Part shown: positions 4,339-55,920 of the stretch, piece by piece | Layout: each line of letters begins with the position of its first letter | Numbering within the stretch: position 1 is the first letter of the stretch | Assembly (NCBI GenBank): GCA_951406725.2 | Contig: OX597831.1 | Span: 51,956,001 to 52,020,000, forward strand | DNA length: 64,000 bases | Direction of reading: 5' to 3' | Source: Octopus vulgaris | Taxonomy: Eukaryota | Program-made: the position numbers and the translations under genes | The notes under the pieces: generated by a model | Database searches by the model: none | The model's input: only the letters and a program-made list of their open reading frames with translations | What the model was told of the DNA's origin: nothing

Positions 4339-4384
<46 letters not shown>

Positions 4385-7300: not shown

Positions 7301-10300
7301 AGAACGGACAAAAGAATTCTAGCTGAAAGCTACATTGATGTGAAATATATTAGTTATGTAGATATTAGAAACGGAAAGACACAAAGAGTGAATGAGAGAG
7401 GGAAGAAAAAGGAGACTGAGAAAGAGAGAGAGAAAAAAGTAAGACAAATAAGCAGACAGAGAGGAAGAAGAATACACAAGGGAGGCATACCAACCAGAGA
7501 GGAAGAATGACATGCAGGGAGAAGGAAAATAAATGCAGAGAGAGAGAGAAAATGACATGCAGAAATAGATAAACACAGAAAAAATAGACAGAAAGACTGA
7601 CAGATTCCAAACAAAGAGAAACAAACAGACCGAACAGAGAAAGATAAACAAATAGAACAAGAGATAGAATGACAGAGAGAGGGACACGCTATTGGAGTGA
7701 GAGACAAAGGAAGGAAGGAAAAGAGAGAGAGAGAGAGACTAATAGATAAAATGATACAGACTAACAAATAGAAAGATTGACAGAAAGAACAGATAGATCA
7801 ATGGACAGAGAGATTATTTGTAAACATCTTAAAAACATTAATTAATATCTTAAATCTTTCCAAGCTTTCAATTAATAGGCTTCATAATAACTTCACTATG
7901 ATATGTTGAAGTCAATTTTGTTATTGAATAGCTCCAGTCAACAAGGCATCGGAGTCAAACTTTGCTTTGAATTACATAATACATTTGCACAAGATGCTAT
8001 GTGATAGGAGTACAAATGCATTCCATTCTGATATGTTTAATTGTGTAGGTTATGTTTAATTATGTGGATATCAAGATATGGGGTGTGCAGTATATTAGGA
8101 ACTGAAGACAACTGTTACACAGAACTGCTCAGTCTGCAATGGAGAGAAGCAGACCATTGTCACATATGTCATTACAAACAGGAAATATTGTATTCTTAAC
8201 TTCAACAAGTCATAGAGTGAACCCACAAGAGGTTGGTCTCACTGGTTATCATGGCTGAACACAAAGGAGCAATAGATTAAGTATCAAGAAGAGGGCTCTC
8301 CTCAACAATGAGGAAGTAAATATATTACATATAAATGGACATACACACCCATAGAGACAAAATTCTCACCTTAATGTAAATAGCAAAGGCATAACACAGT
8401 TCTTTTAATCCTTCCTTGACACGAGAAAATAGCTGATACATTAAAGTTAAATCCGAAATCCGGTTTTCATTCAACAGATGTTCAAGACCTGATTAAATGG
8501 AAGAAAATAAAACCCAATCAAAGCATAATCCTTAGTGATACAACTAACATGTTTGCTTTAACTGCTGAATATCTGTTGTTTTCCTCTTAATAGCAACAAA
8601 ATCAAATGAAAGGAAACATACAGAAAGGAAACATTAGGTACAACTACAAATAAATGATGCACAAACATTAAGATTTATAACAAACATGACAGACCTACAG
8701 AATATTAAACAAAGACAATGCACCACACTAAGAGGGAAATCGGAGCTTACATAGAAGATTAAAGACAGATGATCCTGAATAACAACAGACTTCATCATCT
8801 CTCAGGATGCTAAAGATTTAACTAAATGATTCTATTTCACATTTACAATTGAAAATAAATGTCAATGAGATGAATTTACTTTAAAATTATACACGATAGG
8901 CAGGAAGAATTCTCCTTCAACTGATGCTGTAACAGCTACTTTGGGAGATGTTTCACAAGTAGAATGGTAAATACTGGCTGCTTTGAAGAAATGGGAAAAA
9001 TGAATAAAATGTCTGAAACACTTTTGTCTAAAATAATATTGTGATTTTGTTTAATCTCGTTAATAAAAAGGAACTATTTTACTTGTCCCGGGTCTTTTTT
9101 AAAATCTCTTTTCCTATTTTATTCTTCAAAAATAGTAAGGGGAAGGAGATTTTAAATGCTTACCTTTTTGTAACATCAAAGATAGGTGTTGTTCAAGAAG
9201 TTGCTTCTCAACACAAGATATCAGTGGCTTTCTGCAGCAGAAAATACAATGTAACATGAACTGAAGAAACAATAACCAAAATATGTTAATACATATGTTT
9301 TACTACAAAACATAACATTTTTTAAAAAAGCATGAATTAAAGATGGATGGATTTGTTATTTGTTGTTGCCCCAACAAAACCATACTTGGGAATACTTGAT
9401 GGCTTAATGAAATTTGGCACTGTCAGATTTACTGAAACTTTATGGCTTGGTGATCTTTCTCCTCACAAAATATCACTTCTAAGATTATAACTTTTTGGAC
9501 AATTAACTCTGTCTGTAGAGTGTACTTCCAACATTTATGTAACTATTTCCATCAGTGTGTTTTTCCAATATTCATGGACTACTTCCTGAAATGTATATTT
9601 TTAATATTTATGGAACAAATCCTGAATTTAGTTTGGGACTCAGTACATTATCATCATTATTATTTAACACATCCTTTCCAATGTTTGCATGGAACAGACA
9701 GGATTTGTTGAGGCAGATTTTCTACAGCCCTTGCTGTTACCAACTCGTACTTGTTTCCAGGTAAGGTAATGTTTATCCATAGCCAGACATGTTATTCAAG
9801 GAAGACTAGAAACAAACAACCTCACTTGTATGACAGTGATGCTCATTTACAACATCACATGATGTGTAGATAAGGGTACATACAAATACATATGATGAGA
9901 TTCTTTCAGTCTCCATCTACCAAATCCACTTACAAAGCTTTGGCCAGCCTGAAGCTATAGCAGAAGGCACTTGCACAAGGAGCTACAAAGTGGGATTGAA
10001 TCCAAGACCAAATGTCTGGGAAGCAATCTTTTTAATCACCCAGCCATGCTTGCTCTTATTTTACACATGAATGATTAAGACACCTGATGACAATTGAAGA
10101 GCAGATAAAAAAATATTGTATGTGGGTATACATATATATATATTATACATGCACAGTAAAGCAGTTAATAGTCTAGAAATTAGCAAACTCATACATTTAA
10201 TCATTTCTTTTGTTATATGGTGTCTGATGGTGAGCTAATCAGTTAACTAATCCTAACACTGATCTAATTTATGTCATGGCTGAATCAACAAAACACTTGG

Positions 10301-13300: not shown

Positions 13301-14520
13301 GGCATTATTATGCTAACCAGCTGAAGTTAACTTTGTCCAACAACTCTTCAAGTTGATTAAATGAAGGACAAAAACCAACTGGGAGTTTGATTTAAGTCAC
13401 ATCAAACCAAAATTTAAGGCCTTATATTTATGTCAGAAAACATTAAGCCAATTAGTTATCTTCATATACACAGAAATGTTGTATTAGAATTTAGAATTTC
13501 AAATATTCTCAAAATTGTAGAAGCACTGAAGAACCACAATTATGTCAATATATTTGGGAGGTCAGTTATATAACAACCTTTTACAACAATACTCAACTAA
13601 AATCAACTAAAACTCAGTGTGACAATGAAAGACAGCAACCCGATTTTTAAGCCCATAACATGATTTTTTACACGGGATCAGTTTTTACTAGAGACAATAA
13701 TTATATATATATATAGTTAATCCAAACATGAAAACACAAAGAGAAAACACAACAACGCGAGGACGTGGAACAAGTATAGTATTATTGGACGCTCAAGAAA
13801 GAAGGAGGGTTTAACGTTTCGAGCGGAGCTCTTCTTCAGAAACATAGGAAAAGGAAAGATCCAAAGAAGGGAAGATGGAGGAAAAAAAATCGTCAACGGT
13901 ATATATATATATATATATATATGTAAAACACTATTTCATAGTGATCACTTTACTTACATCTCTCTCTTGCATGAGAAGATGACCTTCAGCGGCATATAAC
14001 TGATCTGTGGCTTCAAGAAATTTCTTTTCAAATGCTTCTTGATAAATCTGAAATGGAAAAAAGTCCATATATAATATATACATATATACATACACACACA
14101 CACACAAGCAAGCAGTTTTAAAGATTAACATATTTGATTTTCATGAAGGGCATCCAGCTGTAGAAACATTGCCAAATTTAGACTGGAGCCTGGTGCAGCC
14201 TTCTGGCTTCCCAGAACCCCGGTCGAACCGTCCAACCCATGCTAGCATGGAGAACGGACGTTAAACGACGATGATGATGATGATGATATCTCAAACTTGT
14301 AAATTTGAGGAGTGCAAAATTTCAATAGATAATTTTGAGGAATGCCTCTAAATATGAGAGAAATACACAGGGTAAACACAGAAATAGACATAGAGACAAG
14401 TTGACAAGTGTGGATATAGATATAATGGAATAAGACATGACAGAAAGACACAGGCATACAGAGATATAGACAGCCATAAAAGGAGTTATAAGAGATAGGA
14501 AGAGAGAGAGAGATAAGCAG

Positions 14521-14597
<77 letters not shown>

Positions 14598-17500
14598 TAG
14601 ATAGATAGATATATAGATATAGACAAAACATGGAAAGAGAGAAAGTAGGGTAGAAATACAAAAATAAAATGGTAATCATATACTGGAGATGGAAATACAC
14701 CAGAGCGAGACAGATACTATGTTAAAAACACGTCGTCAAATCTACAAGGAAATTGTTAATTGTCTATTGACTTGTGTGTTCTGTTTCAGGTGTTATGTGT
14801 GATGAGAAATATGCATCAGATACAGAACTCACCTGTAGATCAGAGAGCATTCTCAATAAGCTTTTCAGTAGTTGTCTGTCCACAGCCTCACCAGCTCGTT
14901 CTCGTTCGATCAGCTGGAGTAGACCACTAACTGTCTTTGCCTGGACAACTTGGTGACTAATGATATGTGTCCTAAACAGATCCAAACCCATGTCCCTAAA
15001 AAGCAGAAAATTATACAAATGACTTTGTTTGAATTCACCTGTGTCACTGATAGAGATAATCATACCTACAACAGATATCTGGTCCAAATATTTTACCTGT
15101 TCTATGATAAAAGTGACCAGATCCAACCTCTCATACTTACCCTATAATGTCATTCTAAAAATATACAAACACATCGTTGAAATATTGAAGCTACAAGATA
15201 ATGCGTGATTAATTCAAAACAATGCAAAAAAATAAGCATTATATTTGATAAAGTCATCTGAATGCTAAATGGTTAAACTCAATTTCAACCTCAATTGTAT
15301 TTTCTGACATATAGACAATATTATATAACCACAAATGACAAGACATTGGAGGAAGGGTGTTGAATAACAAGATGGGCAGTATTCATAACATTCTGTTCAT
15401 CCTCCAAGACTAGTGAAGCAAAAAGGAGGAAGAAACCACATCTTGAATTGTTGTTGTTTAAGCCCAAAGTTATCCTTTATAGAGTAAGGCTAGCTGTGAG
15501 CAAAAGTGTTCTACCCATAACCAAAGAAAATCAAACATTTCCAACAGCACCAACTTTGCTCAATCATGAGGATTCAAAGGAGGGACTACATTACCAATGA
15601 AGAGGTTCTGCTCCAGTCTGGGCTACCTAGCATTGAAACCATGATGGCACACCACCACCTCCAATGGTCAGGGCACATCATATGTATGCCTCAAATGTGC
15701 CTCAACCATCAATTCCTCTTTGTGGAGTTTAGGCTTCAGGCACCAGACCACATAATGCCCCCAAATACTGTTTCCAAGACCAGCTAAAGGTCACTTACTC
15801 CCACTGCTCTATCGACCTAAATTACCCGAGAGACAATAACCAAGGACTGCCCAAAGTGGTGGCATGTTATTACTGAGGGAACAGACCTGATGGAAAATAA
15901 CAAATGTCAAGAAGCAGAGATCAGGTGTCAAAGATGCAAAGAGCAACTTGCATTTCCTCACCTGCCCCCATCAACTCTCCTGTGATAAACGCCCTCGGCT
16001 TTTCTATACCACCCTTGGCCTGAACAGCCACCTGAGACACCAGCACCCTTCACACCCATCAAAATGAAAAGGCTCGATCACTAGCTATAGATCTGCTACT
16101 TGGATAAGAGTTAATACCGATGATGATAGCTAAAACTATATCCTTTCTTTAGGGTAGCAAAGTGAAATTCAAGGAAGATTTATTAGTTATTTCTAGCAGA
16201 TCAAAAGGTAGAGGCTGTAGTAAGAAGTTCATCAAGATGTCAAGCTATCATCAGACCCAGAGACTTGGTCCATGTGTTCACAATAGAGCAGATTCCACTA
16301 CTTAAAGCAAGCTTCTTAACTACAGAGCCACACCTTTACACTATCTTTTTTCTCTCTTTTCAGTGTATATGAAATTGCATTATCCAATGTATCCAAACAC
16401 TACTTAAGATGTTAGGCAATGGTTTGAAAGAGATTTGACTGCTATTTCTAGAAAGTTAAGTAATTACCAAGAAGGTTCCTCAGTTGTTCTGTCACCATGC
16501 CCACCATTTTTAACAAGCATACAAGATCTGTAGCTATAATTACCTGACACTTAACCCTCTAGTATTCAAACTGGCCATATCAGGCCCAAATATTCTACCT
16601 GTTTTGTGTTTTAAATGACTAGATCAGGTCTTGCACACCTACCCTACAATGTCATCATCATCAAAATCTCAAAGCTACGAGATAATGTATGACAAATTCT
16701 AAACCAATGTAAATAAATAAACATTACATTTGACAGGGGAATCCGAATGCTAAAAGGTTAAATATTCATCTGATCAAACCTTGCTAGACTTAACTGCTCC
16801 ATACCCTCCCATTTTAATACCCATACAATATCTGTCATCAATGTGAGAACAAAAAGAAGTTCAATTTTTCAGATTTTCTTATTTAAGAAACTCATTGCTC
16901 TTAAGACAAAAAGCATGTAAAGAGGATAAAAAATCCCCACAAAAACTAACTCTTTCTTAAAAACTACAAACTGTTTAACCCTTTCATTACTAAAACCAGC
17001 TGCAGCCAGCAGAGAAATTTTCTGATTTATGTTACCAGCCTTGTTGAAAACAGACGAAATAACGTAAAAGTTAGAGTTGTTTTATGAAACCAGTGATTTG
17101 AAATATAGTAACAAAAGGGTTAACTCACCATATAGAAAGTACAGCGGAGTTTTGTAACACATAGGTTCGGTCTAAGAACAAGAAAATACTTCGGATCATG
17201 ATCTGAAAATAAAGAATATTAATAAATTCCAAATTCCATCCAAGATGAAAAATTGTGTGAAACTGTTAATAAAGAAAAGAAAAAAGAACCCAAGAGAGAA
17301 TATTCTTAAAAATTAGGTTTTAACAGACATACATTCAAACTGATCAAATATTGGTTTTAATCCTTATAAGATGATGAACTAATCTATCACTCTACTACGT
17401 TTTGTACAGAGCAGAAGATTTGGTCTTAAAGAATCCATAGGTCAGAAAAAAATATGCACTTGTACATTTGAACAGGTATATTAATCAAACTATACAGTAT

Positions 17501-17672
17501 TACAGATCCATTTCAGCCAATCTTAGCAATAAGTTTCACACTGAGCATTAAATAACTATTTATTAGATAACACACCAAGTATTAAATAACTGGATATTAA
17601 TCTGTTTATTTAATATCCATTGTGAAACTAACTGGTAAGATAGGGTGAAATGGATCTATAATGCATACTTTG

Positions 17673-17721
<49 letters not shown>

Positions 17722-18068
17722 TCTTGTTTCAGTCTTTACATTGTAGCCATGCTGGGGCACTGCCTCAAAGAATTGTAGTCAAACAAATTGGCCCTAGTTC
17801 TTTTTAAGCCAAACCACTACACTTTCTTTCATTTGTACATCTATTCAAATATGTGAATGTGTGATATATTTCCTTGTGTGTGGTATATATAAATACACAC
17901 ACAACTTTCTCTTACATGCAAAATAGTTTATTAAATGAGGAAAAATGCCTATTAACTGACACTGAACTTCCAGATTTATGACATTAAATAAAACGATCAT
18001 ATAGATGGAGATTAACCATTTAGCCTGCTAAGAACATATAATCTTGAATGCAAAAAAGATAAACTTAA

Positions 18069-18104
<36 letters not shown>

Positions 18105-21100
18105 TATGCCAAACATTTGATATGTCTTTTCTGGCAAGTCTTCTTACATGTTATATCATTTGTGGAGTAAGAAAGGCAGAAGTTTAGTGTTTCTCTTTGT
18201 CTACACTGTATCCAAGAAATATATAATTGTCTTGATTAAAAGGCTGAGTGACTACAGAATAAGTCCTGCTCACAGAGTGACAAATTCTAAGGTCCATTCA
18301 AAAGTTTATGTGGATTAAACTGATAATTTAAGCTGATTTAGTCAGCTCAACCATCATGGTTTGCTGAAAACTGAAGCTGCATTTTCTCAGTTCCTAATTC
18401 TAGATAACTTAGTGAAGGGACTGATCCATATAACACAACAGAATGTTCCTGATTAGGGTAGGGTTATATGCAGAGTGATAAGAGGTAGGAGATTTAAGTT
18501 AGAACTGCTTATGGTTTTCCTGAAAGTTTGAGTTATTTAACAACTAACAAAAAATAAAGGTTACAATTTTTGGAATCATTCACAACTTATTTTTAAGGTG
18601 GACTTTTTCTAGGTTTTGTTCACAAATTGTAATTAGAGTTTTATTCCTGGGTGTTTGTACAGTACCACATTGGATTAGGACAGGGATCCTTATTTCTTAA
18701 AAATGTTTATATTTAATGACCCTCTAATCCAGTTTATTGTTATGGAATAAAATATATGACGACTGAAAATCAAACTGATCAAAATATAGTGTAAATATCA
18801 ATGATTCAAACAGTTATGAATTCATTAAAAAAACACTTCAGATGTAAGTTAAAAAGAAAATATAAGACTCTACATTTCACAAGTTTACTTACCATCTGCC
18901 GACAATGGTCCTGCCAGCAATTGTTTATTGCCTTCAAGAACATTTCATAACCCATGGTTTTTGTAAGATAGTTAAGGAAAACATTACCACCATAATCATT
19001 CAGATACATTTTTTTTCTGAATGTAAAAATGTTTTACAATATAAAATTAGAGACATGTAACTAAATAAAAGTACATAAATCAATTTCTTCATCTGTCACA
19101 CTCACACGCAATGTATGCAAACAGAAATAAAGCAATTTGAGGGTGATTGTAAAGGTTGAGTCCTAGGAAATTGTGGGTCACCCTTCATAAGAAGCTTAAA
19201 TGAATTTTGGATACCATGATACCATTGCTCTAAACTGACATCAGTTCTAGACAAGTAGTTTGTTGTTCAGTTATGGACATTCCAAGATGCAATGGAAAAT
19301 GTTGCTGAAATTCTGAATGCACTTGTAACACTTGGTTGGCCAACATATGCAACTTCAAAGCATGCAATGAATTCATGGCATAAGTATTGCAGATGCAGGC
19401 ATGACTCTGTGGCTAGAAAGTTTGCCTCCCAACCACATGGTTTTGGGTTCAGTCCCACTGGACAAGTATCTTCTATTATGGCCATGGGCCAACCAAAGCC
19501 TTGAATGGATTTGGTAAAGAGAAACTGAAAGAAGCCGAGAGGGAGAGAGAGAGAGAGAGTGGTGCATGTGTGTGTGTGTCTCTCTCTCTCTCTCCTTGTT
19601 TTAATATAACATGATGGTTGTAAAGGAATGTCATTCATTTCTAATATTCTGCAAAAACATGTCTGACCATGGAGAAATATTATCATGGTTGGAAACAGGT
19701 AAGGGTTGGCAACAAAAAAGGACATCTGGCCAAAGAAAATCTGCCTCAAATAAACTCCATCCAAACCAAGCAACCATCAAAAAATGGATATTAAAAAAGA
19801 TGAATGATGATGATGATGTAACAGAATATTTTTTTGCTACTTTTTCCTGTAATAGTTACATACAGTACAGCAAATGTCCAGAGATCATCAATACCTGGGA
19901 CATTTGCTCAGGACACAAATACCCTTGTGTCAAGTTTGGGTGCAGGAATTGAGAAAGAAATTGGTCTTAGTTTCTTGTTAGTAGTATCTACTAGAGAGAC
20001 AACTAATGTATTTATAAAATATGCAATGGGTATATCTAATGCACCCCAATTAAAGCAGCACATGATCAGGAAAAACTAGTTTTAATGCATTAAAGCATGT
20101 AATATAGACCTGACTTTGCATAAAGGACCTGGGATTGATTTCTTTGGAGACATTTTATTAGAGAAAAAGTGCAGCTTATATGCTAACAAATATAGAACAT
20201 TGATTCAAACAGATCATATGACTGGATGAGTGAAAAAAAGAGAGCAACACAAACATAATTGAGTGTTAGGGTTAATTAAATTAAAAGTAGAAGATTGAAA
20301 ATTATCACACAAAAACGTTTCACAAACAAAGAAACACAAGAGAGACTTAAAGTGTACTGCAGATGCTGATATAGAAACATGGAAATTAAAAGGAAAACTT
20401 TTGTAAGAATAGTATTGTTTAGTCCTACATCAGACTTAATCACAGAGATCTTATCAACAAAGACACTCTGAGACCATCCTGTCATTTTCCAGAGAGTGTA
20501 TATACTTTTTGTAAACATTGCAGGTTGTGGTCAGGAAGATATTAGTGCTATTTCTAGCAGCAAATCAAGCAACTGTGTAAAGGCATTTTCATTTGTTGTT
20601 ATTGTTGCTGGTCCACTTAGGGGTATCTTAGACTTATCCAGTGTGACTTTTTTTTTTATTACTTCTTAATAAAAGAAAGAAAAAAAAGGAATAGCCACAC
20701 CAATGATTTTCAAAGGAGATTGGTGAGAGAAAGGCATTCTCAGACTGAAGATCTGGTCCAACTTCTTGAAAAGTCAACTCTGATAAAAACTCTGAAAGAC
20801 CAGCTAGTAGTATTAAATCAGATGGTGGCTTAAGAAAATAGTGGGATTTAATGAGGGCTATTTGGCTGTTATTTCTTGTAGGTTGAGCAATGATATAGAA
20901 GCACTTTTGTTTTGGTGGTTCTAAGGATAGACCATCTAAGTCATTTTAGTCAAGATCATAGTTAAGACCACATTGTCTTTCACTCCAAGCTATATTACTC
21001 AGTGTATTTTCTTTTATAAGACAATAGAGTGTGGATTGAGGGAGATATGCCTGGTATTTTTTCTAGCAGATTCAGAGATCTCCATGAAGGTTTCCACACT

Positions 21101-24100
21101 GGCTTGTTCTAAGGTTGAGTTATAAACATCTGAAGCTAGCTATACTATTTGTAATTAGAATGTGATAAATTATTATAGTTAACTTGGTTAGAAATTTAGT
21201 TTCAATGTCATTACATCCATTAGATACAGAAAAATCTTCCAACATGGATAAACATTTTGTTTAAGTAAAAAGGATTTGAGCAAGAGGAATTTTGTGACTT
21301 TCTTAGGAAGGAAAGGATCATTTATGACTTTTTTTCACATGGCCTATACATTGTGTAAGAAACTATCATACATAGATTAATGCTGTTGAAAGAGCACATT
21401 GAAACTTCATCAGATTAGAGATATAAGTTTAAATCCACAATTGTCAGTTCAAATAGTAAATTTCTATTGACTTGTCAACAATATTACACCAAAGGGAAAA
21501 AGAAAAGATACACTGTAATAGCCGATATAAACACAATTTTCCAGGTCTTGGCAGTTATCCTTTTCTCTTTCAATTTTACTCTAATTGCAACAAGCCAATA
21601 ATTTGTTATCAAAAGTTTAAATCAACCTTGACAAATCTGACCAAATACCAATGAGTTAAACACACATCACTAATAAAAAAAATAGATGTGGGGTGGAGAG
21701 AGCGTTTCATTTAGATATGTTGCACTGAATAGAGGACTATATTTTAGTTTTATCTTTTTTATCAATGTACTTTGTTTTTCGGATTTTTTAATAAATCCTT
21801 TGCCGTTTGCTTGGAACAGTACAGTTCTTAAATCTATCAACAGCATTTTTAGACCTTCATAACCTCATCTTCAAGTTGAAGTGATGGTAGAGGTGTTTTA
21901 TTGCCTTGTTATAGAAGGTAGGGAAAATGTAATACACACACACACGTATAAAAATGTCAGTAGGTTTATATCTTAATAGCCCCTGGATCCTCACTACCCA
22001 TTCCAAAGAAATGCTCTGACCTCTGTTGTTGCAGAAACTGAAGCCATGTCATCACAGATCAAAGACACCTATTCTTAGGCAGCCTAATATGTAGCCTGGA
22101 GTTTGGGAAGTCTTGATGGCATGCTAGTGCTACATAGTTATTAGGTAGCAATCTTATTACATAGCCAGATTACTTCAGTAATAGCTTTTCTTATAGAAAC
22201 ATTTTTATGGTATTTGTAACACCTATAGTATAAACAATAAACACTACATTTCAAAAAACTTTGAGTCTGTATGCATTTTAGATTTTAGGAACCCTTTTCC
22301 AAGAAATAGAATTGGTCCTGGATATATTGAGAGAATAAAGGCAATGTACATTCTAAGTCAGTGACTGATATCCTGCAAATTCCAAATTATGCTTCCAAAT
22401 GCTATAGAAGCTACTGAAACTTCTCTTCTCACATTTTCTAATCCAACTTGCACTATACTGCCAGGAATATCAAATCTAGCCATGTGTTCTTCTTCAGCAC
22501 CATCCTTACTAAGTGACAGGACACTATGTCTATGCCCTATTTTTTTTTACATGCTTCAGTGAACAGTTTAATGGACATTTTCAAGTTGTCAATGGACTTT
22601 TAGAGATGTGTTGCCAGGATATATAAAAAAAATCTTTGGAGCTAGCATCATTGAGTAGTTTACCCAAATCAATTTTTACATGAGAAATTCAATGAAGATA
22701 AGGAAAAGAATGCAAGTGTATAGACACAAATGTACATATCTGTGTGTGTGTGTGTGTACACAGACACACGTGCATGTCTGTATATATCTGCACATATTTA
22801 TATACACGTTATATTATGCTCATTTTCCATGCTAGCATGAGTTAAATAGGTCATCACAGACTGAGTCCCTTCCCAGTCAAAATTACTTGCCTTCCAAAAT
22901 GAGTTAGAAGACCAAATCTTACAGGAACATTACATTTTTGACGTGTTTTCTATGGCTGAATGCTGTTGCTATCAACAAAACCTTACAGAGTATTCTAGGT
23001 GCATTTTATTGTAGCACCAACAGTAAAGAGGTTGTCATGTTCTCAGCAACACTAAAGGGTTCTCATGGCCCTACATCATCTCCACTCTTTTGTCAACCAC
23101 TTTTACAAAGTGTATATACTAGGTGCATAGAGCATCATCATTAGTGGGGTTGCCTTGCACACTTTAAGACTGTAAGGTTCCAATATGTAGAAGTACTAAG
23201 TAGAGTCCTCACTGCTCTATGAGCCGTTTGTTAAAAGCATAGACTGAGGAGGTGAGTAGCAAAGCAATTGAAGATATGAGAGTCCAGATGAGTGGTTGGA
23301 GCGAGTGAGTATATGATGGTAAAAACAGTGATAGAGTCAAGAGGCGGAAAGTATGATAACAGAAAGAGTGAAAAGGTAGTAGGGAATGCCAACTTTAGTT
23401 ACACCAGTAGCATTATGTAGGAAATAGACATAGGGGGTACGAGAGGTAGGAGAGGCAGAAGATTCAGACTTTTCTATTGGGTTAGAGACCCAAAACGTAG
23501 CTGTCCCCTAGTTTCACGATCACTGCCAGTTTTTAATGATTTTACATTTTTCTTGTCTATATAACCATGTTTACAAAGAGAGGTGGGTTTACTTTAACAG
23601 TAAACACAAAATCTACCTTTTCTCTTAGCCAGGCAATGATTTCACTATTTATACACAATCACATACACACATATATAGATATCAATACACAAACACACAT
23701 GACAAGCTTCCATTTCCTGTCTATCAAATTTCATTTACAAGACACTGGTCAACTTGTTATTCAAATAGAAGATACCAGTCCATACACCAAAACAAATTCT
23801 CAGCTATGTAGTTCCAAAGCAAACTTCTTAATGACACAGCCATGCCTGCACCTACATTTCGACATATGCGTGTGGGTATATACATATGCTAGCATGGAAG
23901 GCGGACTTTAAACGATGATGATAAATGATATACACACGCACACACACACACAGTGCCACGTAAAAAGCACTCAGTCCACTCTGGAAGGTGGGTGGTGCTC
24001 AGAAGGACATCCAACTGTAAAAACCCTAGTGAAGCCTAGTTCAGTCTTCTGTTTAGCAAGCCCCTGTCAAACCATCCAACTTATGCCACCATTGAGAACG

Positions 24101-27100
24101 GATGGTTTAAATGATGATGATGATCACACACATACATACATATACACACAGACACGTGTGTGTAATGTATATCTCATTTGGCTTTGACAACATCATCTGG
24201 GTTGCTCATTCTATTCTAATTTGTTCACAGACTATTTCCAATGGTAAATCAGTCACTTTCAAATTGACAGTTACACATATTTTGTTTAGGTTTCTTTGAA
24301 AGACACACTTTGTCATCCATCTTGATCTGGAGCAAAGGTACAACCATGCCACATATCTGTATTTCAAGGTTTCAAGAAAGCTCATTATTGGTAATTCACA
24401 TTGTATTATCTTACATTTTCTTTTGATCTTTTGGTATTATTACAAAATCAGCCACATGTATAAAATGACTGAAACTTATCTCTGAGATGATTCCAATTCT
24501 AACAGTTATACATCATCAAGCATTCTCACATTCCACAAAATGAGAAATGTTGCCAGGATATTCTTAACATTCTGCCTAAGACTGAGGGTCACTGTTCAAC
24601 TGTACAGCCACTGAGACTAATAGGCTAAAAATGTACTTGGGTACTTGCTAAAAACTTCCCAAAAGAGAGAATGTTCAAAGTGGTCTCTATTATGAATCCT
24701 AATTTTTACTAACAACACCCTGCTAAAACATTCAGTTTCTTGACTTCAAACTGCTATGGACTGCCACTTCTAGATACTCAGACAACTGCTGATGCTCAGT
24801 ACTCATCTCTTTGTCTAAGTTTGGTCTGTCAGCCAAGATGAGGTTAGGAATTTCAAGACCCTTCTTGAAGACACTACAACAGACATGAATGAGACCAATG
24901 CAAGTTAGGTCCAACATAGAGCTAGATGCTAACCAGTATGACTGGTAAGCTACTAAATGGCTACATTTATAGGCAGTGTTAAGAGTGGAAATTTACATAC
25001 CCCAAAATCTACATGTAATCCCTACACTGTAAAATGAGTGCATAAGAAAAGCTTTTCACAGGACATATGAAACAATTGGTGTCAGGTCACTTGAGGGCTA
25101 CTGTTAACATGAAATGCAGTACAACCTGTTGTATGGTCAGGTCGTAGGTGACTAAACTGACACCTCCACTAGACTTGCTTGGTGAGTGGGGTTGCTAGAA
25201 ACCCAGCAGGACTAAAAGCAAGATCTGTCAAAAGGACGGATGAACCTAGCATAGGTTCAACGATTATCTAGCAATAGCATAAGGACTCAGAAATTCTGGG
25301 TTAGTGTCTGGTGTTCTAGGAGTGACAACTGGGATTGAGGCACTCCTTAGCTTTTGCTAAAGCATGTCTCTAGAACCCACTTCATCCCTAGGTAATGTTC
25401 ACTCTAATAATCAGCAGTGAGTCAGTCAGTAAATCCTCTGTGATGATTGACAATTAACAGCAAGATGAGCTGTTATGGATCACACTATCCCAAAGTATGT
25501 ATGCAAGTGACTGGAGGCTAAATGTGAACTTGTATTTTCACTGAAACTCCGAACATGAACTCTACATCTCAATGGTTACTACAGCCATGGCAGCCACACT
25601 ATTGAATGAAGTCAGCATCCATAAGGAACATGGTGAACTTGCTGGTCAAAGCTAGCTCAACTCAACTTGGGTGAATGCCACCACAAGTACAAATATTACT
25701 GAAGCAATAGGAAGAAAGAGACTAAAATGGTCCAGTCATATAAAGGTTACCTAATAATTGTTGGCATTCATCCAAGCCTACCCAAACACATGACCATGTG
25801 ACAGACCACCTAATGAATGGGTCTTTCAGATCCATGACAATATAGAGTTACCATATAAAACAATGGAAGTCAGAGGACCCATTTGAAGTGGGCGGTGATA
25901 GTCCAGCTAACAGGAGAGGATGAGTGTTTAGACAAGTTTAAGTGATTAACCCTTTCGCTACCAACCCGGCTAAAACCGGCTCTGGCTCTGAGTACAAATG
26001 TCTTGTTTTCCTAAGTTTTGAATTAAAATCTTCCACCAAACCTTAGTCACAATTTATGTTCCTAACACAAGCTGAATGATAACTAAGTTATTTTACTAAA
26101 TTCTTTGTTATAGTTAAAGTAATAGAAAGAGAGCATCTCAAAATAAATACAGTAACGAAAGGTTTAAGATATGCATGCGGGCGTATATTCACACACATAC
26201 ATCTGTAGAAACACAATGCCATCAATTGATATGCAATGTTATATATTTTCAGTATTGACTATAAATAACTGATCTCTTCACTTGAAGGCCTTGAACTTTA
26301 AAAGGACTTTTGCTATGTTGGAATTAACAATAAATGCACCAAGCTCTCTCTGTAACTATGGATGGTAATAAGTCATCAGTTAAAAAGGAAAAGAAAATTC
26401 AAATAACAACATTGTAACTGGAGTCATTCAAACGTGTTGAGTGGGCCAGCATAGGGTACACTGATATGTGTATTAGCAAAGAAAGCCTGAGGAAGGTTTC
26501 AAATATATCTAACTCATACTAGCATATTTTATACATGTCTCAGCACACTAATTTCAAGCAGACACATACACATGAGTGAGATAAATATAAAGCATGGTTA
26601 CTGCTAACTAAAAACACACACCCACATCACACTTTTGAGCTGAATATTAATATGAAGCTTCTAATGTGAGAGTTACTATGTTCTCCAAGTACAGCTGTTA
26701 TTGCATGGTTGAGTGGTTAAATGTTGAAAAGCAACTTAACCCAATTGCCAAATATGTGAAATCATCTGGACTAAGCAAGTCAACTATTAATGTTGCTAGC
26801 CAAGCAAGAAATATTGTTTTGTGTGATAGGAACTAAATACAGTGAGTCAGCTTGGCATTTATGCAACAAGAAAACTGCCTTATCATAAGGATTTAATGTG
26901 TGTGTGTAGATGTCTGTGTCCACATCCCTACTCCCAGTCCTTCCAGCCCAGAACCTTGGTCCTCTGAAATACCCTCCTGCGCAATTTGCAACTATTTACA
27001 AGGGACCTTAACCATGTCAAACTCACAGACATGTGAATGTCGTGGAGCTGGCTATTTCCTATAATTCCTCCAAACTAATAAAGAACAAAAAGTGTGTGTG

Positions 27101-30100
27101 CTCATGTACACAGAAGTCCACATACATAGTAAATCCACATCACAACAGCAATGAGGGGACCACTACAAGATCACACAAACTCCAAAAACAAGAAAAAAAT
27201 AGCAGTCAAATTTCTCTCAAACAATACTGCCTTAAAAAATATGACACACTGGATAATTTAGTCCAATGCATGAGGGGGAAAATACCCAAAAAACAAAAAA
27301 GACTAGACAACCATGGCTGAATTATAAAATTACTTGGTCAAAGCTAACAGCAGTTAAGCAACAACAAATGCAAGCAAGCACTTTTCAGTCAGAGAAGGAC
27401 GTCTCCATTCAGTGCTTCACATTTCACTGCACTCAGTTTCTCCCTTCAGTACATGTCCCATTTGCATTCACTATTACAGAGTAACCTATAATAAAACACA
27501 TTTATCAAATAGTCTAAAAAAAGAACAAAGATAGACAGACAGCACCAACATAAACAAACAAACAAACAATTTCGTGAATCAAAAAAAAAAAAAAAAGGAT
27601 ATCCTAAAAACTGTTGTAGATTAGATTGCACATGGCTTTCACAGACATGTTTTAACTGTTCATAAATTGTAGCAGACATTTTGTGAGAACACAAATTTTC
27701 AACTGCCTGATAAAGTTCTTCCAAACAGGATTTTATGGAGTGGCTGTTGTGGATGGCTTCGACAGCCTCTTTCAATTTCTGCCATGTGTCTTGCTGGTAA
27801 TTCTCCGGCAACTTGGGTTTATCTGAAAATACAAAGGACCGTATGTAGAATCACAAGTTTATTTCAAGTTTCACACTCATCGTCATAATTTAAAGATAAA
27901 CAAATGTAAATGTAAAGGAATGTTTTGTTTAAACTCAGATCAGCCTAAATATGAAAGTCTTAACATTAGAGGCATTCCAGTTGTAGCCATCCTATCTTAT
28001 ATTCAGACACTGTACCTCAAGCCACAGTATTCAATATGCTCTTCCTATTTTCAAGAGGATACAGTGCGATTTGAAGGAGATTTGGTTGCTATTTCTAGCA
28101 GGACAAGCTCTTGCATAAAATTTTTTTCAAGCAAGTGCTTGTCCTGCACTTCTACTGATTCAGAGAGCAAGGTTTTAGGTCGATATGTTTACTTCAACAA
28201 ATTGATTCTATTAAAAAGAACATATCCTCAATGTTCACATTGATGATTCATGCAAATTTGGGTTTTTGCATATGAATAGTTGGAGAACATTTCAAGAAAG
28301 TTTCTCTCTGTAACTAGATGCATGCAATCTCAGTTAATGACCAGCTGTACTGACTAGAGAAAGAAGTGGCATTTATTTTCAACAAACCTAAGTCAAGTAC
28401 TATGCAAAGCCTAAATATATAAATATGATAGCTGTTACAAGGCTTTAAATTATAACTGTAATTAAATCTGACACAATGCCATGTAGGCTTATTCCTAACA
28501 TACACAACAAGAATTTATAATAGTGGCAACTTCAACACAATTCCATGACACATTTTCAACTCTCATTTGTGTCATGTATTGTTTAAATCAATAAAAGCTA
28601 TGAACATCCAAATTTTCCATTTTCTCCCTCTCCAGGTCAATAGAGTTAATAACCCTGATTACAAATTATCCATCAGAAAATACCTACATTTAATGAATAT
28701 TCATTTCCTGTATAAGATAAATAGGGTCTTTTTTTCTGTTACTTTTGTTTTTTACTATAATCCTTTCAACTAGAAGCACAAGGCCTGAAACTTGGTGGGG
28801 ATGGGCTAATCGATTACATCGACTCCAGTGTTCAACTGATATTTATTTTATAGACCCCACCCCCATGAAAGGATGAAAGGAAAAAAAATAAAATAGTAAA
28901 TTAAGATGCAAATTCAAGGGAGATAATCACAGCAGGTTGTCTTATGTAAGAAAGGCATTGACTGAGTGACATTGAAACGTCACTAGTTAACAACGTGACA
29001 ATTAGTAATCATATTTGACTATCCTCAATATTGTACTGATTAATTGAATAAAATAATTTAACAGGCTGCATGCGCACACAGACGTGTGTATTTAACAGGT
29101 AGGTGTAACAACAACAACAGAGGTTCTGTGGTTCACATAAAAATCAAGGTCAAATCAATATGTCAAACTAGGATTAAATAAACAATCTAAAGAAAAAAAA
29201 AAAAAAAGGAAGATGGTGGGAAGTGTACAGTTTAAGAGCAAGTTGTCTTACTGTGAAATGTCTGTTCATATCTATTAGCTTAACAGCCTTGAATATAAAC
29301 CTGAGCAGCCTTGAGTGTGACCTCTGAAAATTTTAAGTATGAACCTTGGCAATCTTGACCGTAAGAATTGTCTGTCACAGAATTACAGTTAAGCTACATT
29401 AAACACTAAACTACATTTGTCTTACTCTCAAGAAAACTGGTAACAAAAGAAGTATTCAATCCTTAACCCTTTTGTTACCAACCCGGCTGAAACCGGCTCT
29501 GGCTCTGAGTACAAATGTCTTGTTTTCACAAGTTTTGAATTAAAATCTTCCACCAAACCTAAGTCACAATTTATGTTCCTAACACTAACTGAATGATAAC
29601 CAAGTTATTTTACTAAATTATATTTTATATTTAAAGTAATTCAAAGAAACACAGAGCATCTCAAAATAAATACAGTAACGAAAGGGTTAACACCAGTGCC
29701 ACCACAATTCCAAAGTTGACAAATTTCAATTTATGACCATGAATAAAATCATTGTATCATGGCCCTACAAACTCATTGCCTGCCTTTAAGAAATGTATCC
29801 AGCTCAAGGAATATCACAGCTACTGAATATTGTAGTAAACTTGAACATTTTATAAAATATTTTATCGTTTACTGTTTCAATCATTGGACTGTGACCATAC
29901 TGGGACCTCCTTGAAGGGTTTAGACTAGGGGTTCTCAACTGGGGTCCACGTAAGATTTTGTAGGGAGCACACAACAAAATAGAAAATTGGGGATCCACAA
30001 TAATATTTTAAGAGCCCTTGAAAAAATTTTGCTTTCAATGTATGTATTGGAATGTATTTCAAGAAACAGATAGGTTTCTTTCTGTAACATTTCATTTGGT

Positions 30101-53100: not shown

Positions 53101-55216
53101 TTTATACTGAGAGTTCAAATACTGCCTGAATCGAATTCGCAATTCATTCTTTCCAGACTCGATAAAATGATGAGTACCAGTCGAATAATCGGGATCGATT
53201 TCATCGAGTGTGTTCTACACTCTGGAGTATTTTATGCTCTCGAGTTTTTTGTTAAAAACCATTCTTTTTATTATTATTTTGATTTGTCAGTCTAACAAAA
53301 AAAAGTATTCCTGTACTATGACTGGACTACCCGAAAACATGAGGGTGCATCCACCCGACAGACAAACACACATATATACATACAGACGGACAAACAAACA
53401 AACAAGCAGAAGAGATTGGTCCCTCACCTTTGAAATTTTTGATGACCAATTTTTTGGCGGCGGCGGGTCTGTTGGCGGCGTTGAGGGGTGAAGCATGGTG
53501 TCTGCTGATACCATTGCTGGAGTTGGTCAGAGCGGAGAAGTTAGGTCTCCTCTCAGACTCGGTCATTGTTCTCACTCCTCTATCACCTTCTTTTTCTCTC
53601 TCTACCACTTCGTCTACAGCCGCCGCTGCTGCTGCTGCTACTGGTGTTGCTGTTGATGCTGCTGCGTCTACTCCTCCTCCTCCCTCACCTCTGTCTCTTT
53701 CTCCTTCTTCTCTCCTCTCTCCTTTTCTTTTACTTTCTTCTTCTTTTTCTTCTTGTTTATGATGATTGTGGTTGCGGTCGTCGTCGTCGTCGTCTTCTTT
53801 CTCTTCCTTACGTCCACCACTACCACCTCTGCTGCTGCCAGCGCCGCCGCTGTCACCACCACCACCACTGCTGCTGCTAGGACCTTCTATATTTTGCCCA
53901 CTTTTGTCCCTCGAAGTAGACGGAGCAGTGAAAGTCTTAGTTGTATAGTTACTAGTAGTTGTGGTTGTTGTACTGGTTGAGGTACCTGTACAACTGGCAG
54001 AAGTGGTGGTCGGAGTGAGGGTGGAAGTGGTAGTAGCAGTGGTTATGGTATTGGTGGCAGTGCTGAGGTTTAGGTCCTGGTCGTCACTTGCTTTGTTGTT
54101 GAAGGTTTGCGAATTCACTTTGCTAGTCACAACAGTCGGTCTGATGCCGTTAGTACTGTTAGTGGTGGTGGTGGTAGTAGTAGATGAAGTGGTAGTGGTG
54201 GCGGCGGCGGTGCTGCTGGGGCCACTGACCTCTCCGCTTTTGGCTGTTGTTGTTGTTGTTGTCGACGACGACGCCACTGCCGACACACTTTCAACTTTAG
54301 TTGTTGCTGTTGTTGTTGTTGATGTTGTAGCAATGACAGTTGAGATGGTGGTGGATGGTTCGACTGAGGAGCAAGAGCTGTCAGTCCCAGAGCTGGCACC
54401 TCCACCTTGACCACTTCCAGTATGTTCTGTTTCTTCACTTACTCCCGATGATGCTACTGTTGTTGTTGTTGCTGTTGTTCTTGCACCTTCTGCACTGTTA
54501 TCTCCACCACTGGAGTGGTTGACACTCACAACACTACTATCACTAATGTTGGTGTTAGTGTCGTTGGCAGTATTATAGTCAGTAGCTGCTATTGCTGGTG
54601 ATGGCAGTGGTACTGTGGCTGCTGTTGTTGTTGTTGTTATTACTGTGTTGTTGTTGTTTTTGTTGTGTTGGCTTGTACTGTCCAGGTCAAATGCCAATCC
54701 CGCCGTGGGACTAATGGACACTTTGATTTTCTTATGATTCGACGGAGAAGACGGACGCTGGTAAGAGTCGGAAGTAGAGTCTACTAATGTTGACGATGAT
54801 GATGATGATGGTGGTGGAGTAGTGGCGGTACTGTTTAATGGTCTCGACCAACTGGAACAGCCACTGTCTGAACTTATTTCTACCGCTGCTGTTGTAGTAG
54901 TCGACAATATTACTGATGCTGATGTTGTAGGTCCTGTCGCTGTATCACTGGAGCTGGTATTACTCAACGTACCACTACTACTACTAACGCCAATACTGTT
55001 ACTCTCAGATGATACTCCGACTGTACTACTCACTGCAACTATTGAGCCACTTAAACGACGCTTGCGGTGGTTCGTATTCTCCTCGCTCGACCGGCTCTGG
55101 TGATTATTATTGTTGCTATTATTACTATTATTGGTGGTGGTGGTGCTGGTGGTAGTGTTATTGGTAGTAGTGTTGCTATCCTCAGAAGCGAACTTATTAA
55201 CGCTTGAGAGAGGCAT
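2166..55216 (-). CDS. CUL4: Cullin-4 (CRL4 scaffold), multi-exon gene, 3' end outside the window
   Basis: 14 exons join in frame (3097 nt) and give cullin-4 motifs: [79 protein letters not shown]. The span given includes introns. Confidence 0.97.
2614..2680 (-). CDS. CUL4: CUL4 exon 13 (67 nt) [23 protein letters not shown]
   Basis: ttacag|GAA ... G|GTAAGT. Confidence 0.96.
3611..3648 (-). CDS. CUL4: CUL4 exon 12 (38 nt) [13 protein letters not shown]
   Basis: ttccag|CC AAG ... AAA|GTAAGT. Confidence 0.94.
4040..4341 (-). mobile_element. tRNA(Arg)-like SINE sharing its head with 11004-11190
   Basis: Reverse complement reads TGGAGGCGCAATGACCTAGTGGTTAGGGCAGCGGACTCGC...GGTTTCGATTCCC; CpGs retained. 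Confidence 0.85.
4457..4494 (+). ncRNA. Hammerhead-like motif with variant core in a (TA)n-embedded repeat (about 4383-4591)
   Basis: TCTTT-CTGTTGA-A-GAGC-GTAG-GCTC-GAAAC-GTT-AAAGA. Confidence 0.45.
4722..4850 (-). CDS. CUL4: CUL4 exon 11 (129 nt) DFKDKIDN...NKPAELI
   Basis: ccag|AT TTC ... G|GTATGA; within ORF 4501..4860. Confidence 0.95.
6462..6537 (-). CDS. CUL4: CUL4 exon 10 (76 nt) [25 protein letters not shown]
   Basis: ttatag|GGA ... G|GTAAGT. Confidence 0.93.
7370..7812. repeat. Degenerate purine-rich (AG/AGAC/AGAT) low-complexity tract
   Basis: Read directly; explains the overlapping spurious ORFs at 7115-7767. Confidence 0.85.
8370..8488 (-). CDS. CUL4: CUL4 exon 9 (119 nt) [39 protein letters not shown]
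   Basis: atcag|GT CTT ... AAG|GTGAGA. Confidence 0.95.
9164..9231 (-). CDS. CUL4: CUL4 exon 8 (68 nt) [23 protein letters not shown]
   Basis: ctgcag|A AAG ... G|GTAAGC. Confidence 0.95.
10728..10810 (-). CDS. CUL4: CUL4 exon 7 (83 nt) [28 protein letters not shown]
   Basis: ctctag|GTC ... AA|GTATGT. Confidence 0.95.
11004..11313 (+). mobile_element. Young tRNA(Arg)-like SINE
   Basis: A box TGGCCCAGTGG, B-box-like GTTTTGATTCCC, A-rich tail, 14-bp TSD TACTTTGTCTAAAG. Confidence 0.88.
11960..12118 (+). mobile_element. Retroposon 3' tail ending in (GAT)n (representative copy)
   Basis: GGAAGGGCATCCAGCTGTAGAAAC...CCATGCTAGCATGGAAAACGGACG.TAAATGATGATG. Recurs at about 100-252, 14147-14287, 23990-24125 and 46615-46720, and in reverse at about 1420-1590 and 46720-47040. 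Confidence 0.78.
13809..13843 (-). ncRNA. Minimal type-I hammerhead-ribozyme-like motif in a (TA)n-embedded repeat (about 13715-13900)
   Basis: GTTT-CTGAAGA-A-GAGC-TCC-GCTC-GAAAC-GTT-AAAC. Confidence 0.55.
13958..14047 (-). CDS. CUL4: CUL4 exon 6 (90 nt) [30 protein letters not shown]
   Basis: cag|ATT ... GAT|GTAAGT. Confidence 0.96.
14833..14995 (-). CDS. CUL4: CUL4 exon 5 (163 nt) [10 protein letters not shown]...LLRMLSDLQ
   Basis: tttag|G GAC ... CAG|GTGAG; within ORF 14764..15126. Confidence 0.96.
15530..16070 (+). mobile_element. RTE-type LINE 3' fragment
   Basis: [19 protein letters not shown]...LQWSGHI is typical of the RTE C-terminal region; frame is degraded. Confidence 0.75.
16555..16757. 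mobile_element. piggyBac-like MITE, second family (partial copy at about 15060-15272)
   Basis: TTAA-CCCTCTAGTATTC...GAATGCTAAAAGG-TTAA. Confidence 0.7.
16979..17119. mobile_element. piggyBac-like MITE abutting the exon 4 donor
   Basis: TTAA-CCCTTTCATTACTA...TAGTAACAAAAGGG-TTAA. Confidence 0.78.
17129..17202 (-). CDS. CUL4: CUL4 exon 4 (74 nt) [25 protein letters not shown]
   Basis: ttttcag|ATC ... TG|GTGAGT; read by hand, not in the ORF track. Confidence 0.96.
18893..18962 (-). CDS. CUL4: CUL4 exon 3 (70 nt) [23 protein letters not shown]
   Basis: AC acceptor; donor ATG|GTAAGT; phase 0. Confidence 0.95.
18963..27602 (-). other. U12-type (minor spliceosome) AT-AC intron, 8640 nt
   Basis: 5' splice site ATATCCTTT at 27602. 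Branch site TTTCCTTAAC at 18980-18971. 3' end TATCTTAC at 18963. Joining GG|A AAA ACC ATG keeps the frame. Confidence 0.95.
25950..26163. mobile_element. piggyBac-like MITE, copy A
   Basis: TTAA-CCCTTTCGCTAC...GTAACGAAAGGT-TTAA; highly similar to 29467-29686. Confidence 0.82.
27603..27822 (-). CDS. CUL4: CUL4 exon 2 (220 nt) DKPKLPENY...SNLQQFLG
   Basis: Acceptor ttttcag|AT. Ends at the U12 donor GG|ATATCCTTT, phase 2. Confidence 0.95.
29467..29686. mobile_element. piggyBac-like MITE, copy B
   Basis: TTAA-CCCTTTTGTTAC...GTAACGAAAGGG-TTAA. Confidence 0.85.
29926..30225. mobile_element. hAT-type MITE nested in a SINE
   Basis: TIRs TAGGGGTTCTCAAC / GTTGAGAAACACTA; perfect 8-bp TSD GTTTAGAC. 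Confidence 0.85.
36290..36720 (+). mobile_element. Relic of a non-LTR retrotransposon with restriction-like endonuclease
   Basis: [21 protein letters not shown] in ORF 36296..36493 resembles the RLE domain. Confidence 0.6.
39050..39410 (+). mobile_element. Abundant tRNA-derived SINE (representative copy)
   Basis: GTGTGGTAAGAAG..GGTTCAGTCCCACTG..CCTTGGGCAAGTGTCTTCTACTATAGCC. Related copies at about 440-1050, 9890-10050, 19380-19530, 31190-31520, 42700-42860 and 47460-47600. Confidence 0.8.
40472..40924. mobile_element. hAT-type MITE
   Basis: TIRs CAGTAGCGTAACTGGG / CCTAGCTACGCTACTG; perfect 8-bp TSD GTTATACT. Confidence 0.88.
40976..41175. repeat. Compound (TA)n/(CA)n/(TATC)n microsatellite
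   Basis: Read directly. Similar tracts at 4341-4382, 14521-14620, 17678-17720, 18070-18102 and 60711-60790. Confidence 0.95.
42010..42650 (-). mobile_element. RTE-clade LINE reverse transcriptase fragment
   Basis: [11 protein letters not shown] and [24 protein letters not shown] lie in frameshifted ORFs 42422..42706 and 42283..42468. Confidence 0.85.
43350..45720 (+). repeat. Cluster of about 9-10 co-oriented SINE copies, mostly head-to-tail
   Basis: Repeating unit GAGCTGGCAGAATCATTAGCA...GAGTTCAAAT...TTTCATCCTTTCAGGG..GATAAAATAAGTACCAGT with (ATT)n tails. Further copies at about 11505-11950, 47750-47950 and 59432-59650 (+), and 5615-5990 and 59855-60092 (-). Confidence 0.88.
48353..51077 (+). 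mobile_element. Degenerate full-length Tigger/pogo DNA transposon
   Basis: TA-flanked imperfect TIRs (CAGGCATACCCCATGTTACG / CGTAAAGCGAGAGATTCCTG). Broken transposase at about 49120-50680: [40 protein letters not shown]. Confidence 0.88.
53428..55216 (-). CDS. CUL4: CUL4 exon 1: 550-aa low-complexity S/T/N-rich extension, then [15 protein letters not shown]...KKLVIKNFK
   Basis: ORF 53327..55216. In-frame TAG upstream at 55310-55312. Donor AAAG|GTGAGG at 53428/53427, phase 1. The part from Met551 (53566) is secure; translation of the extension is inferred. Confidence 0.85.
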
Positions 55217-55220
55217 GCAT
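55197..55220 (-). promoter_or_regulatory. 7-codon uORF (MHASLKR*) overlapping the first CUL4 AUG out of frame
   Basis: Minus strand reads GGA ATG C ATG CCT. The upstream ATG at 55220 gives ATG CAT GCC TCT CTC AAG CGT TAA. Function is untested. Confidence 0.55.
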
Positions 55221-55779
55221 TCCGATTTCTTCGGCCAAAAATGACCTGGGCCCTCCTTTGAATAAAAATCTGGGGTCTTGCAGTCCCTTTCGCACTTTAG
55301 GGAATCCGACTACTGGATGGATGGCTTCCCCGACGTCTTTTTTTTTTTTTTTTTTCCTTCAACACGCTAAATGGCAAGAGATGGTGAAGTAGTCAAAAAA
55401 TATTACCAACAATAATAATAATACTGGTGATTCTGGTATCGCTGCGACATTTGTTCCGTCGATAAAGCTTAGAGCGTTGCTGTGTTGGTTTCAATCTGTG
55501 TGATATATATACTGTATATTATATATTCGGGTGTATGTAGAGAGTAAATTGAATACACAGTTGCTGTTTTATAAGTAATTTTTGTGACTTAACTGGCATG
55601 AGGTGCGCCTTTTCTTTAAACACCGACCCCTTTGCCTTATTTTGCTGTTTCTAGCAGTCCCTTTCTTCCGACTCACAGCTACACTTCCACTTACTGGATA
55701 CGGATCTTTCACACAAAGGAAAAAATACGATGTTCGCTAATGGTGAAAATCCTATATTTGTGTATGAGGTTTCTTTAAG

Positions 55780-55920
55780 GCGTTAACGCCAAAATAATAA
55801 TGGATAGCCGTTTTGTAGCTTCAGCTTCAAGGTAGGAGAAATATGGCGGAAAATCTCGCGAAAATCACGTACAGCAAGGGGAACTAACCGACAAGTCTTG
55901 GAAATTGCTTGAAGCAGACG
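55780..55920 (-). promoter_or_regulatory. Probable CUL4 core promoter, CpG-rich
   Basis: YY1-like ATGGCGG (55843-55849) next to TCTCGCGA (55854-55861), at the upstream edge of the CpG-retaining zone. The TSS is not known. Confidence 0.5.

Follow-up and report, generated by a model that had tools for sequence, protein, structure and literature searches.

The window analysed here is a 64,000-nt stretch of the Octopus vulgaris genome (contig OX597831.1 of assembly GCA_951406725.2, positions 51,956,001 to 52,020,000), which carries on its minus strand the first exon of the cullin-4 gene (CUL4). Two in-frame start codons of this exon, Met1 and Met2, are separated by a long stretch of open frame without ATG in any frame, and one octopus mRNA likely makes both a long and a short CUL4 protein from them. 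On comparative sequence grounds we propose, with a probability of about 0.7, that leaky scanning combined with reinitiation after a short upstream open reading frame (uORF) yields CUL4 with and without a nuclear localization signal (NLS), and that this arrangement is older than the vertebrate duplication into CUL4A and CUL4B. The analyses demonstrated the layout itself and its transcription within a single uninterrupted exon, as well as the conservation of the two methionines, of their contexts and of the uORF starting at position -4 relative to Met1.

Met1 (55214..55216, minus strand, as are all features of the gene) opens the long form with MPLS and lies in a weak context (-3 T, +4 C), while Met2 (53564..53566), the start of the short, CUL4A-like form, lies in a strong one (-3 A, +4 A). 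The frame between them (53567..55213) comprises 549 codons rich in Thr, Ser, Ala, Gly and Asn, in which no Pfam match, strong fold or acceptor-like site was found. It contains two basic clusters that are NLS-like by sequence, RKRRLS (55049..55066) and KKIKVS (54716..54733). The uORF that overlaps Met1 (55197..55220) forms an ATG-N-ATG pair with it, has a purine at -3, and consists of seven codons, ending at a stop that lies 20 nt downstream of the A of Met1. The remainder of exon 1 (53428..53563; NFSAL...KKLVIKNFK) is followed by a splice donor GT at 53427.

A full scan agreed with the earlier note, which had been made from the letters alone, on the absence of ATG in any frame over 1647 nt: minus-strand ATGs are located at 55220, 55216 and next at 53566 (a gap of 1650), and the runner-up gaps in the window are 456 (minus strand) and 407 (plus strand). 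The same note was right that no in-frame stop separates the two starts (an open frame extends from 55309 to 53327), that two ATGs follow soon after Met2 (at 53514 and 53496, both off-frame), and that the contexts of Met1 and Met2 are weak and strong, respectively. Its rough estimate of 15-25 expected ATGs was matched by computed values of 22 (mononucleotide model) and 15.3 (Markov-1 model). In a trimer census of the 1647 nt, 63 of the 64 trimers were present and ATG was the sole absentee. Dinucleotide shuffles (n=300) gave a mean of 15.1 ATGs and a minimum of 6; shuffles of 60-nt blocks gave a mean of 12.5, and zero was reached in none of 1000. Codon-order shuffles produced 10.4 off-frame ATGs (zero in 0/10000), and shuffles of 10-codon blocks 6.4, with a probability of zero (P0) of 0.0002.

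Composition has to be weighed against these results. It is unlikely, although it survives best among the alternatives, that only the long protein matters, that expansion of Thr/Ser triplet repeats produced the desert as a side effect, and that Met2 is kept merely as a residue. This explanation draws on the synonymous-codon shuffle, which predicted a mean of just 3.2 ATGs (P0 0.017). The result is borderline because the extension has just 10 junctions at which a codon for N, D, H or Y is followed by G, six of them inside one (GAC)n run. None of these 10 junctions forms ATG, compared with 13/13 (all with T) in the downstream exons of the same gene (Fisher 9e-7, or 1e-4 if the GAC run is scored once), a contrast that composition alone does not account for. 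Within the extension, codons ending in a pyrimidine before G use T in 51/66 cases when they are not NAY codons and in 0/10 when they are. The shuffle makes the claim that synonymous choices avoid ATG weaker than had been implied.

The repeat blocks of the genome also favour composition, since stretches of 500-1160 nt in them lack ATG. At 49 control places in genome G000, the longest such runs measured 1163, 820 and 817 nt, and none reached 1650. These places were the first matches of two repeat patterns on one contig plus five weak protein-search matches, not a genome-wide sample; the pattern controls (at least 60 loci) were nearly all non-coding microsatellites. The 1163-nt run is itself a near-pure microsatellite, with 135 distinct 6-mers compared to 777 in an equal length of the extension. 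The control of low-complexity coding exons is thin because only one locus, L087 (G000:C1:54425994-54429019, frame 2-3025), resembles a long coding frame. It is a 1008-codon open reading frame (ORF) rich in Gln, Ser and Ala, a putative gene for which a Pfam search gave no match, and it contains 19 Met codons and 11 off-frame ATGs, which argues against composition, as do the local shuffles that never or almost never reached zero. Moreover, the region around Met2 is variable and probably disordered, the nucleotide context of Met2 is selected, and the codon corresponds to the start of CUL4A. Repeat-rich DNA of the octopus genome is ATG-poor on its own, and composition covers part of the depletion but not the whole.

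Other features of the extension were less informative. None of 13 listed polymorphic substitutions yields an ATG, but this comparison is powerless because, of the 4941 single changes possible, no more than 210 could do so. Predicted RNA folding averages -20.9 kcal/mol per 120 nt, with a mean z of -0.86; it is neither unusually weak nor unusually strong, and therefore gives no support to an especially unstructured leader. Eight in-frame near-cognate codons in a strong context are still present in the extension.

Both methionines recur across animal CUL4 proteins. In the named mollusc, brachiopod, annelid and nemertean proteins, an MPLS start is followed by one or two basic clusters and by Met2 ~35 residues ahead of KKLVIKNF; insect CUL4 follows an equal plan with a different first motif, and three insect records carry an additional Met further upstream. 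Every one of the 47 invertebrate records in which a Met1 motif could be recognised also has Met2, with no Met in between, and a basic cluster resembling cluster 1 was located at the matching relative place in all 47 extensions scored. The short extensions (36 records, 39-58 residues) contain no Met in 1669 residues, compared with 4 in 1249 residues after Met2. The cephalopod extensions (11 records, 224-636 residues), which beyond octopus were compared as protein (Met counts), contain none in 3948. They fall into four types that are poorly alignable apart from the two octopods: identities between octopod and decapod types, or between the two decapod types, number 59-107, and the extensions are nonetheless Met-free. 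For the two decapod extensions this could arise by chance at a 1% Met rate (p 0.11 and 0.05), as the composition argument would have it. Among 15 further representatives, 13 were scorable and all 13 agreed, including another decapod-type extension of 221 residues; a third protein search aimed at cephalopod extensions yielded no new ones.

The start contexts were compared at the DNA level in 54 loci of relatives, 14 of which lacked exon 1. Of the 40 with exon 1, 29 were scored; the 11 left out were four near-copies of L035, three 5'-cut loci, L049, L007, L020 and L053. With the window included, Met1 has a pyrimidine at -3 in 24/30 loci and Met2 a purine at -3 in 28/30, compared to 148/219 internal Met codons. 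An off-frame ATG at -4 with a purine at -3 was found in all eight loci of the MPL[ST] type, in L018 and in the window. In these 10 loci, the uORF comprises 7-13 codons and stops at +20 to +38 from Met1, 97-1630 nt before Met2. The A-TGN-ATG layout demands a TGN codon, and the residue preceding Met1 is accordingly Cys or Trp in 5/5 protein records with sequence ahead of MPL[ST].

Off-frame ATGs do occur between the two starts of the relatives: 22 in 4611 nt, distributed over 18 of the 29 loci, vs 36 in 3816 nt after Met2. Eighteen of the 22 are weak at -3, and the frames of 17 end before Met2. In the eight MPL[ST] loci, seven such ATGs were found, all of them no more than 34 nt from Met1 or no more than 16 nt from Met2, and none in the intervening 786 nt, a zone defined after inspection of the data. 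Short off-frame ORFs of three or six codons ending before Met2 were observed in L005, L006 and L011 (+46 to +55) and in L025 and L032 (+58). The divergent loci L040, L041, L042, L044, L050 and L055, probably fungal by sequence, likewise have an upstream Met in a weak context, basic clusters and, further on, another Met. Zero ATG is not universal among orthologs: the extensions are free of Met, but 18/29 relatives with short extensions have at least one off-frame ATG, so that distant orthologs contain, in the letter, the internal ATGs that the earlier note named as grounds for rejecting its proposal.

These features are those expected of leaky scanning, namely a conserved weak upstream AUG and a stronger in-frame downstream AUG on the same mRNA; the lack of an intervening AUG holds in the window and only partly in the relatives. 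A short, position-conserved uORF ending upstream of Met2 is the arrangement expected of reinitiation, and the overlapping -4 uORF probably adds this to plain leaky scanning. Nearby AUGs compete for initiation (part of PMC9743702), and the efficiency of resumed scanning after a short uORF depends on distance and on ternary complex (part of PMC10275272). In the proposed mechanism, scanning ribosomes would divide three ways at the ATG-N-ATG pair: (i) some would initiate at Met1 and make the long form of ~1,310 residues, which has the NLS-like clusters and is predicted to be nuclear, (ii) others would use the better-placed -4 ATG, read seven codons, stop past Met1 and resume scanning, and (iii) the rest would leak past both ATGs. 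For ribosomes on the second and third routes Met2 would be the first AUG met, giving a CUL4A-like short form of 760 residues without the basic clusters.

The octopod extension may have grown from ~48 to 550 codons by repeat expansion, with new ATGs purged because leaking and reinitiating ribosomes must traverse its whole length. The ATGs removed would be those off-frame and any in-frame Met yielding an intermediate product. Spread over 1.65 kb, some 15 random ATGs would intercept the ribosome flux, hence the complete desert in octopus; in extensions of 150 nt, a few weak ATGs near Met1 would be tolerated since ribosomes in or after the uORF probably pass them. A model of waste avoidance expects an in-frame Met near Met1. 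None was seen, which suggests selection for a Met2 product without basic clusters. All comparative tests fit the proposal that the extension would serve both as coding sequence and as a scanned leader, giving from one mRNA a long and a short CUL4, the latter CUL4A-like.

The vertebrate proteins retain traces of the same plan. CUL4A aligns from Met2 onward. In CUL4B-type records, which are mainly from birds and fishes and far from independent, a Met follows KK[LF]RFE within 16 residues in 82/82 cases, and upstream of it no Met was found in 7446 residues of the 74 records with a recognisable first motif. The layout would thus be older than the duplication, CUL4A having fixed Met2 and CUL4B having kept the weak Met1, the basic clusters and Met2. 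This suggests that CUL4B still encodes an NLS-less form. The part of PMC7397870 consulted places human CUL4B (NM_001079872.1) in the set of the weakest 10% of start contexts, with its first downstream AUG at +73 (frame 1, 16 codons); an identical +73, 16-codon off-frame ORF was found at the fish CUL4B locus L054, and it may be the vertebrate counterpart of the -4 uORF. In a harringtonine-based HeLa table from the part of PMC12718117 consulted, a truncated CUL4B start is listed that maps nine codons before the Met2 homologue, beyond both basic clusters; the main text of that paper, as far as consulted, does not mention CUL4. According to the part of PMC3506489 seen, mouse brain contains a minor neddylated Cul4B form without the first 187 residues, the size of which plausibly fits a Met2 start.

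In octopus, the region 55326-53428 with both ATGs was present on one record each in the contigs of 4/4 sequencing runs from four studies; that these are RNA runs is a guess, consistent with contigs running across the splice donor. The contigs of all four runs reach the donor and carry on, with no credible skip within exon 1. Short joints inside the extension were rejected as repeat artefacts (triplet repeats, 18-25-letter sides, non-GT/AG ends). On the leader side, the contigs end at 55842 (X1), 55838 (X8) and 55799 (X4), and record 19 of X8 spans 55838-55172 with two gap letters. The 5' leader (55217..55842) is thus ~620 nt long and apparently unspliced, with an approximate 5' end set by the contig ends. 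The contig of run X16 (organism B) extends to 56455. Compared with the window, organism B shows no listed substitutions over 55172-55989 (leader and start) vs 21 over 55990-56413, and in the extension 11 substitutions plus an in-frame 6-nt insertion over 1288 nt; conservation looks higher in the leader than in the coding extension.

The contigs fix no transcription start site (TSS) and are blind to an internal one, which leaves room for an explanation that we consider quite unlikely: that both proteins exist but the short CUL4 is owed to a promoter inside the extension, or to a different 5' end, close upstream of Met2, as in yeast CCA1, instead of to scanning across the extension. Such a promoter would account for the conservation of Met2 equally well, and downstream TSSs are frequent in HeLa in the published data consulted. 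It leaves unexplained, however, the weak Met1, the conserved -4 uORF and the 1.65-kb absence of ATG; there is no acceptor-like site within the extension, and the sole CUL4B row found in the consulted part of PMC13219423, a table taken from its columns to be HeLa CAGE (cap analysis of gene expression) data, maps by arithmetic 324 nt upstream of the weak Met1.

Least probable, and indeed very improbable, is a short protein that alone is abundant, with the extension mostly a long leader and Met1 and the -4 uORF acting as a rheostat that sets how much CUL4 is made: a better AUG shadows the weak Met1, and the RefSeq-type record of O. sinensis (P0122) and an older O. bimaculoides model (P0124) begin at Met2, but the frame is open across 221-636 codons in every cephalopod type, the MPLS start and two basic clusters are kept in molluscs, a brachiopod, an annelid and a nemertean, and in CUL4B the homologous extension is phosphorylated and functional (Stier 2023, as far as consulted).

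Several observations, in addition to the borderline synonymous shuffle and the contigs' blindness to internal starts, weigh against scanning to Met2 as we propose it. Three upstream AUGs and 2.2 kb of scanning should lower the yield of the short form; besides the -4 ATG, these AUGs are those of leader uORF a (55519..55599, 26 codons) and leader uORF b (55403..55450, 15 codons), both in a weak context. Off-frame ATGs persist between the starts of the relatives as well as of human and fish CUL4B, and 5 of the 22 in the relatives open frames that continue past Met2. At L007, L020 and L053 the same frame holds no in-frame Met further upstream, which speaks against universality unless a separate exon carries their extension; L049 is interrupted by an intron in the extension region. 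Met1 and Met2 of the divergent loci were chosen by eye, and Met1 of L003 is doubtful, with an acceptor-like site upstream (without L003, Met1 is weak in 23/29 loci). Since the loci and proteins are related, the p-values overstate independence. The truncated HeLa start was called at a CUG and not at the Met2 AUG (PMC12718117, part consulted), the short mouse isoform was ascribed, after UniProt, to splicing (PMC3506489, part consulted), and the single CUL4 of plants, yeasts, worms and flies is described as nuclear in the consulted part of the review PMC11763709.

The gene is a cullin-4 ortholog, present in a single copy and co-orthologous to CUL4A and CUL4B. Its downstream cullin exons (2167..27829) were recovered as 12 tblastn pieces, and it extends past the window start. 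Pfam domain PF00888 (Cullin) was found on exon 2 and on protein P0003, and PF10557 (neddylation domain) on P0003; an exon-2 query gave a single CUL4 match in genome G000, and the closest proteins are from Octopus species. In a midpoint-rooted tree of 23 selected proteins, in which the O. sinensis ortholog P0122 stood in for octopus, it grouped with invertebrate CUL4, outside the 4A/4B split, which falls inside vertebrates (support 100/100). Public Octopus models (P0003, P0121, P0122, P0124) differ in their start: Met1 (1317 residues), Met2 (760 residues) or a spliced start (1286 residues). The O. vulgaris model P0003, in which a Met is joined to 'SRSSEEN' and MPLS is skipped, was rejected as a gene-model artefact, as the contigs lack such a splice. 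Elsewhere in the window, plus-strand ORFs at 62041-62583 and 50381-50704 resemble decayed transposase fragments by eye, with no Pfam match.

Like vertebrate CUL4B, the octopus long form would have an N-terminal extension that is unstructured, rich in Ser/Thr and furnished with basic clusters, and the start of the short form is homologous in position to that of CUL4A. Unlike the vertebrate pair, octopus has one gene, and its extension is ~5x longer than that of CUL4B. The earlier note's idea that initiation choice does in octopus what duplication did in vertebrates holds as far as the two CUL4-type forms go, but this would be no octopus substitute: the layout appears older, CUL4B keeps both starts, and CUL4A would be a short-only derivative. 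A 2025 review (PMC11763709, part consulted) holds that a cytosolic role of CUL4 was gained with vertebrate CUL4A, through duplication; our data would place an NLS-less form earlier. Stier 2023, in the part seen, calls the CUL4B extension unique, with a similar one in Trypanosoma. Full-text searches, which subscription papers and some supplements lay outside and in which most hits were judged by their listing, turned up no account of alternative initiation of CUL4 or of its evolution.

The design resembles the dual-localized isoforms that TRNT1/CCA1 and GARS1 make by leaky scanning, with a weak Met1, a conserved downstream Met and a targeting signal in between, a need that other lineages serve by paralogs or alternative promoters; it differs in that the signal is NLS-like instead of mitochondrial, the two starts lie 550 vs ~30 codons apart, and an overlapping -4 uORF is present (comparison with the consulted part of PMC12718117). 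As in uORF reinitiation (PMC10275272), a short uORF stops upstream of a later start, and as in the competition of closely spaced AUGs (PMC9743702), two AUGs no more than 17 nt apart would compete; unlike in the consulted parts of both papers, the octopus uORF overlaps and bypasses an in-frame start and is predicted to set an isoform ratio. CUL4B is also among the human mRNAs with a weak start and downstream initiation of PMC7397870, outside the 10 genes tested there in the part seen. The model of that paper favours a nearby in-frame AUG that limits waste; CUL4 has none until past the basic clusters.

A broader joint reading is offered tentatively, at somewhat less than even odds. The nuclear/cytosolic division now seen between CUL4B and CUL4A would predate vertebrates by far, may extend to fungi, and would at first have been encoded by start choice on one mRNA. 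Spiralians would tune the ratio through a conserved ATG-N-ATG uORF responsive to stress and to start stringency, ribosomes in octopods would be forced to scan 1.65 kb of coding sequence before the second start, and human CUL4B would still yield an overlooked CUL4A-like form, spared by variants upstream of Met2.

CRL4 ligases control the licensing of DNA replication as well as repair and chromatin, and CUL4B is a gene for X-linked intellectual disability. If the two-start design is conserved, the CUL4 split moves back at least to the bilaterian ancestor, and the duplication becomes a partition of pre-existing isoforms. The design predicts an NLS-less product from animals with a single CUL4, such as insects, and from human CUL4B, where it would bear on knock-out design, on tagging and on the interpretation of 5' CUL4B variants. 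Octopus CUL4 would represent an extreme natural test of scanning distance through translated coding sequence, and a case in which AUG avoidance moulds a fast-expanding, repeat-rich protein region.

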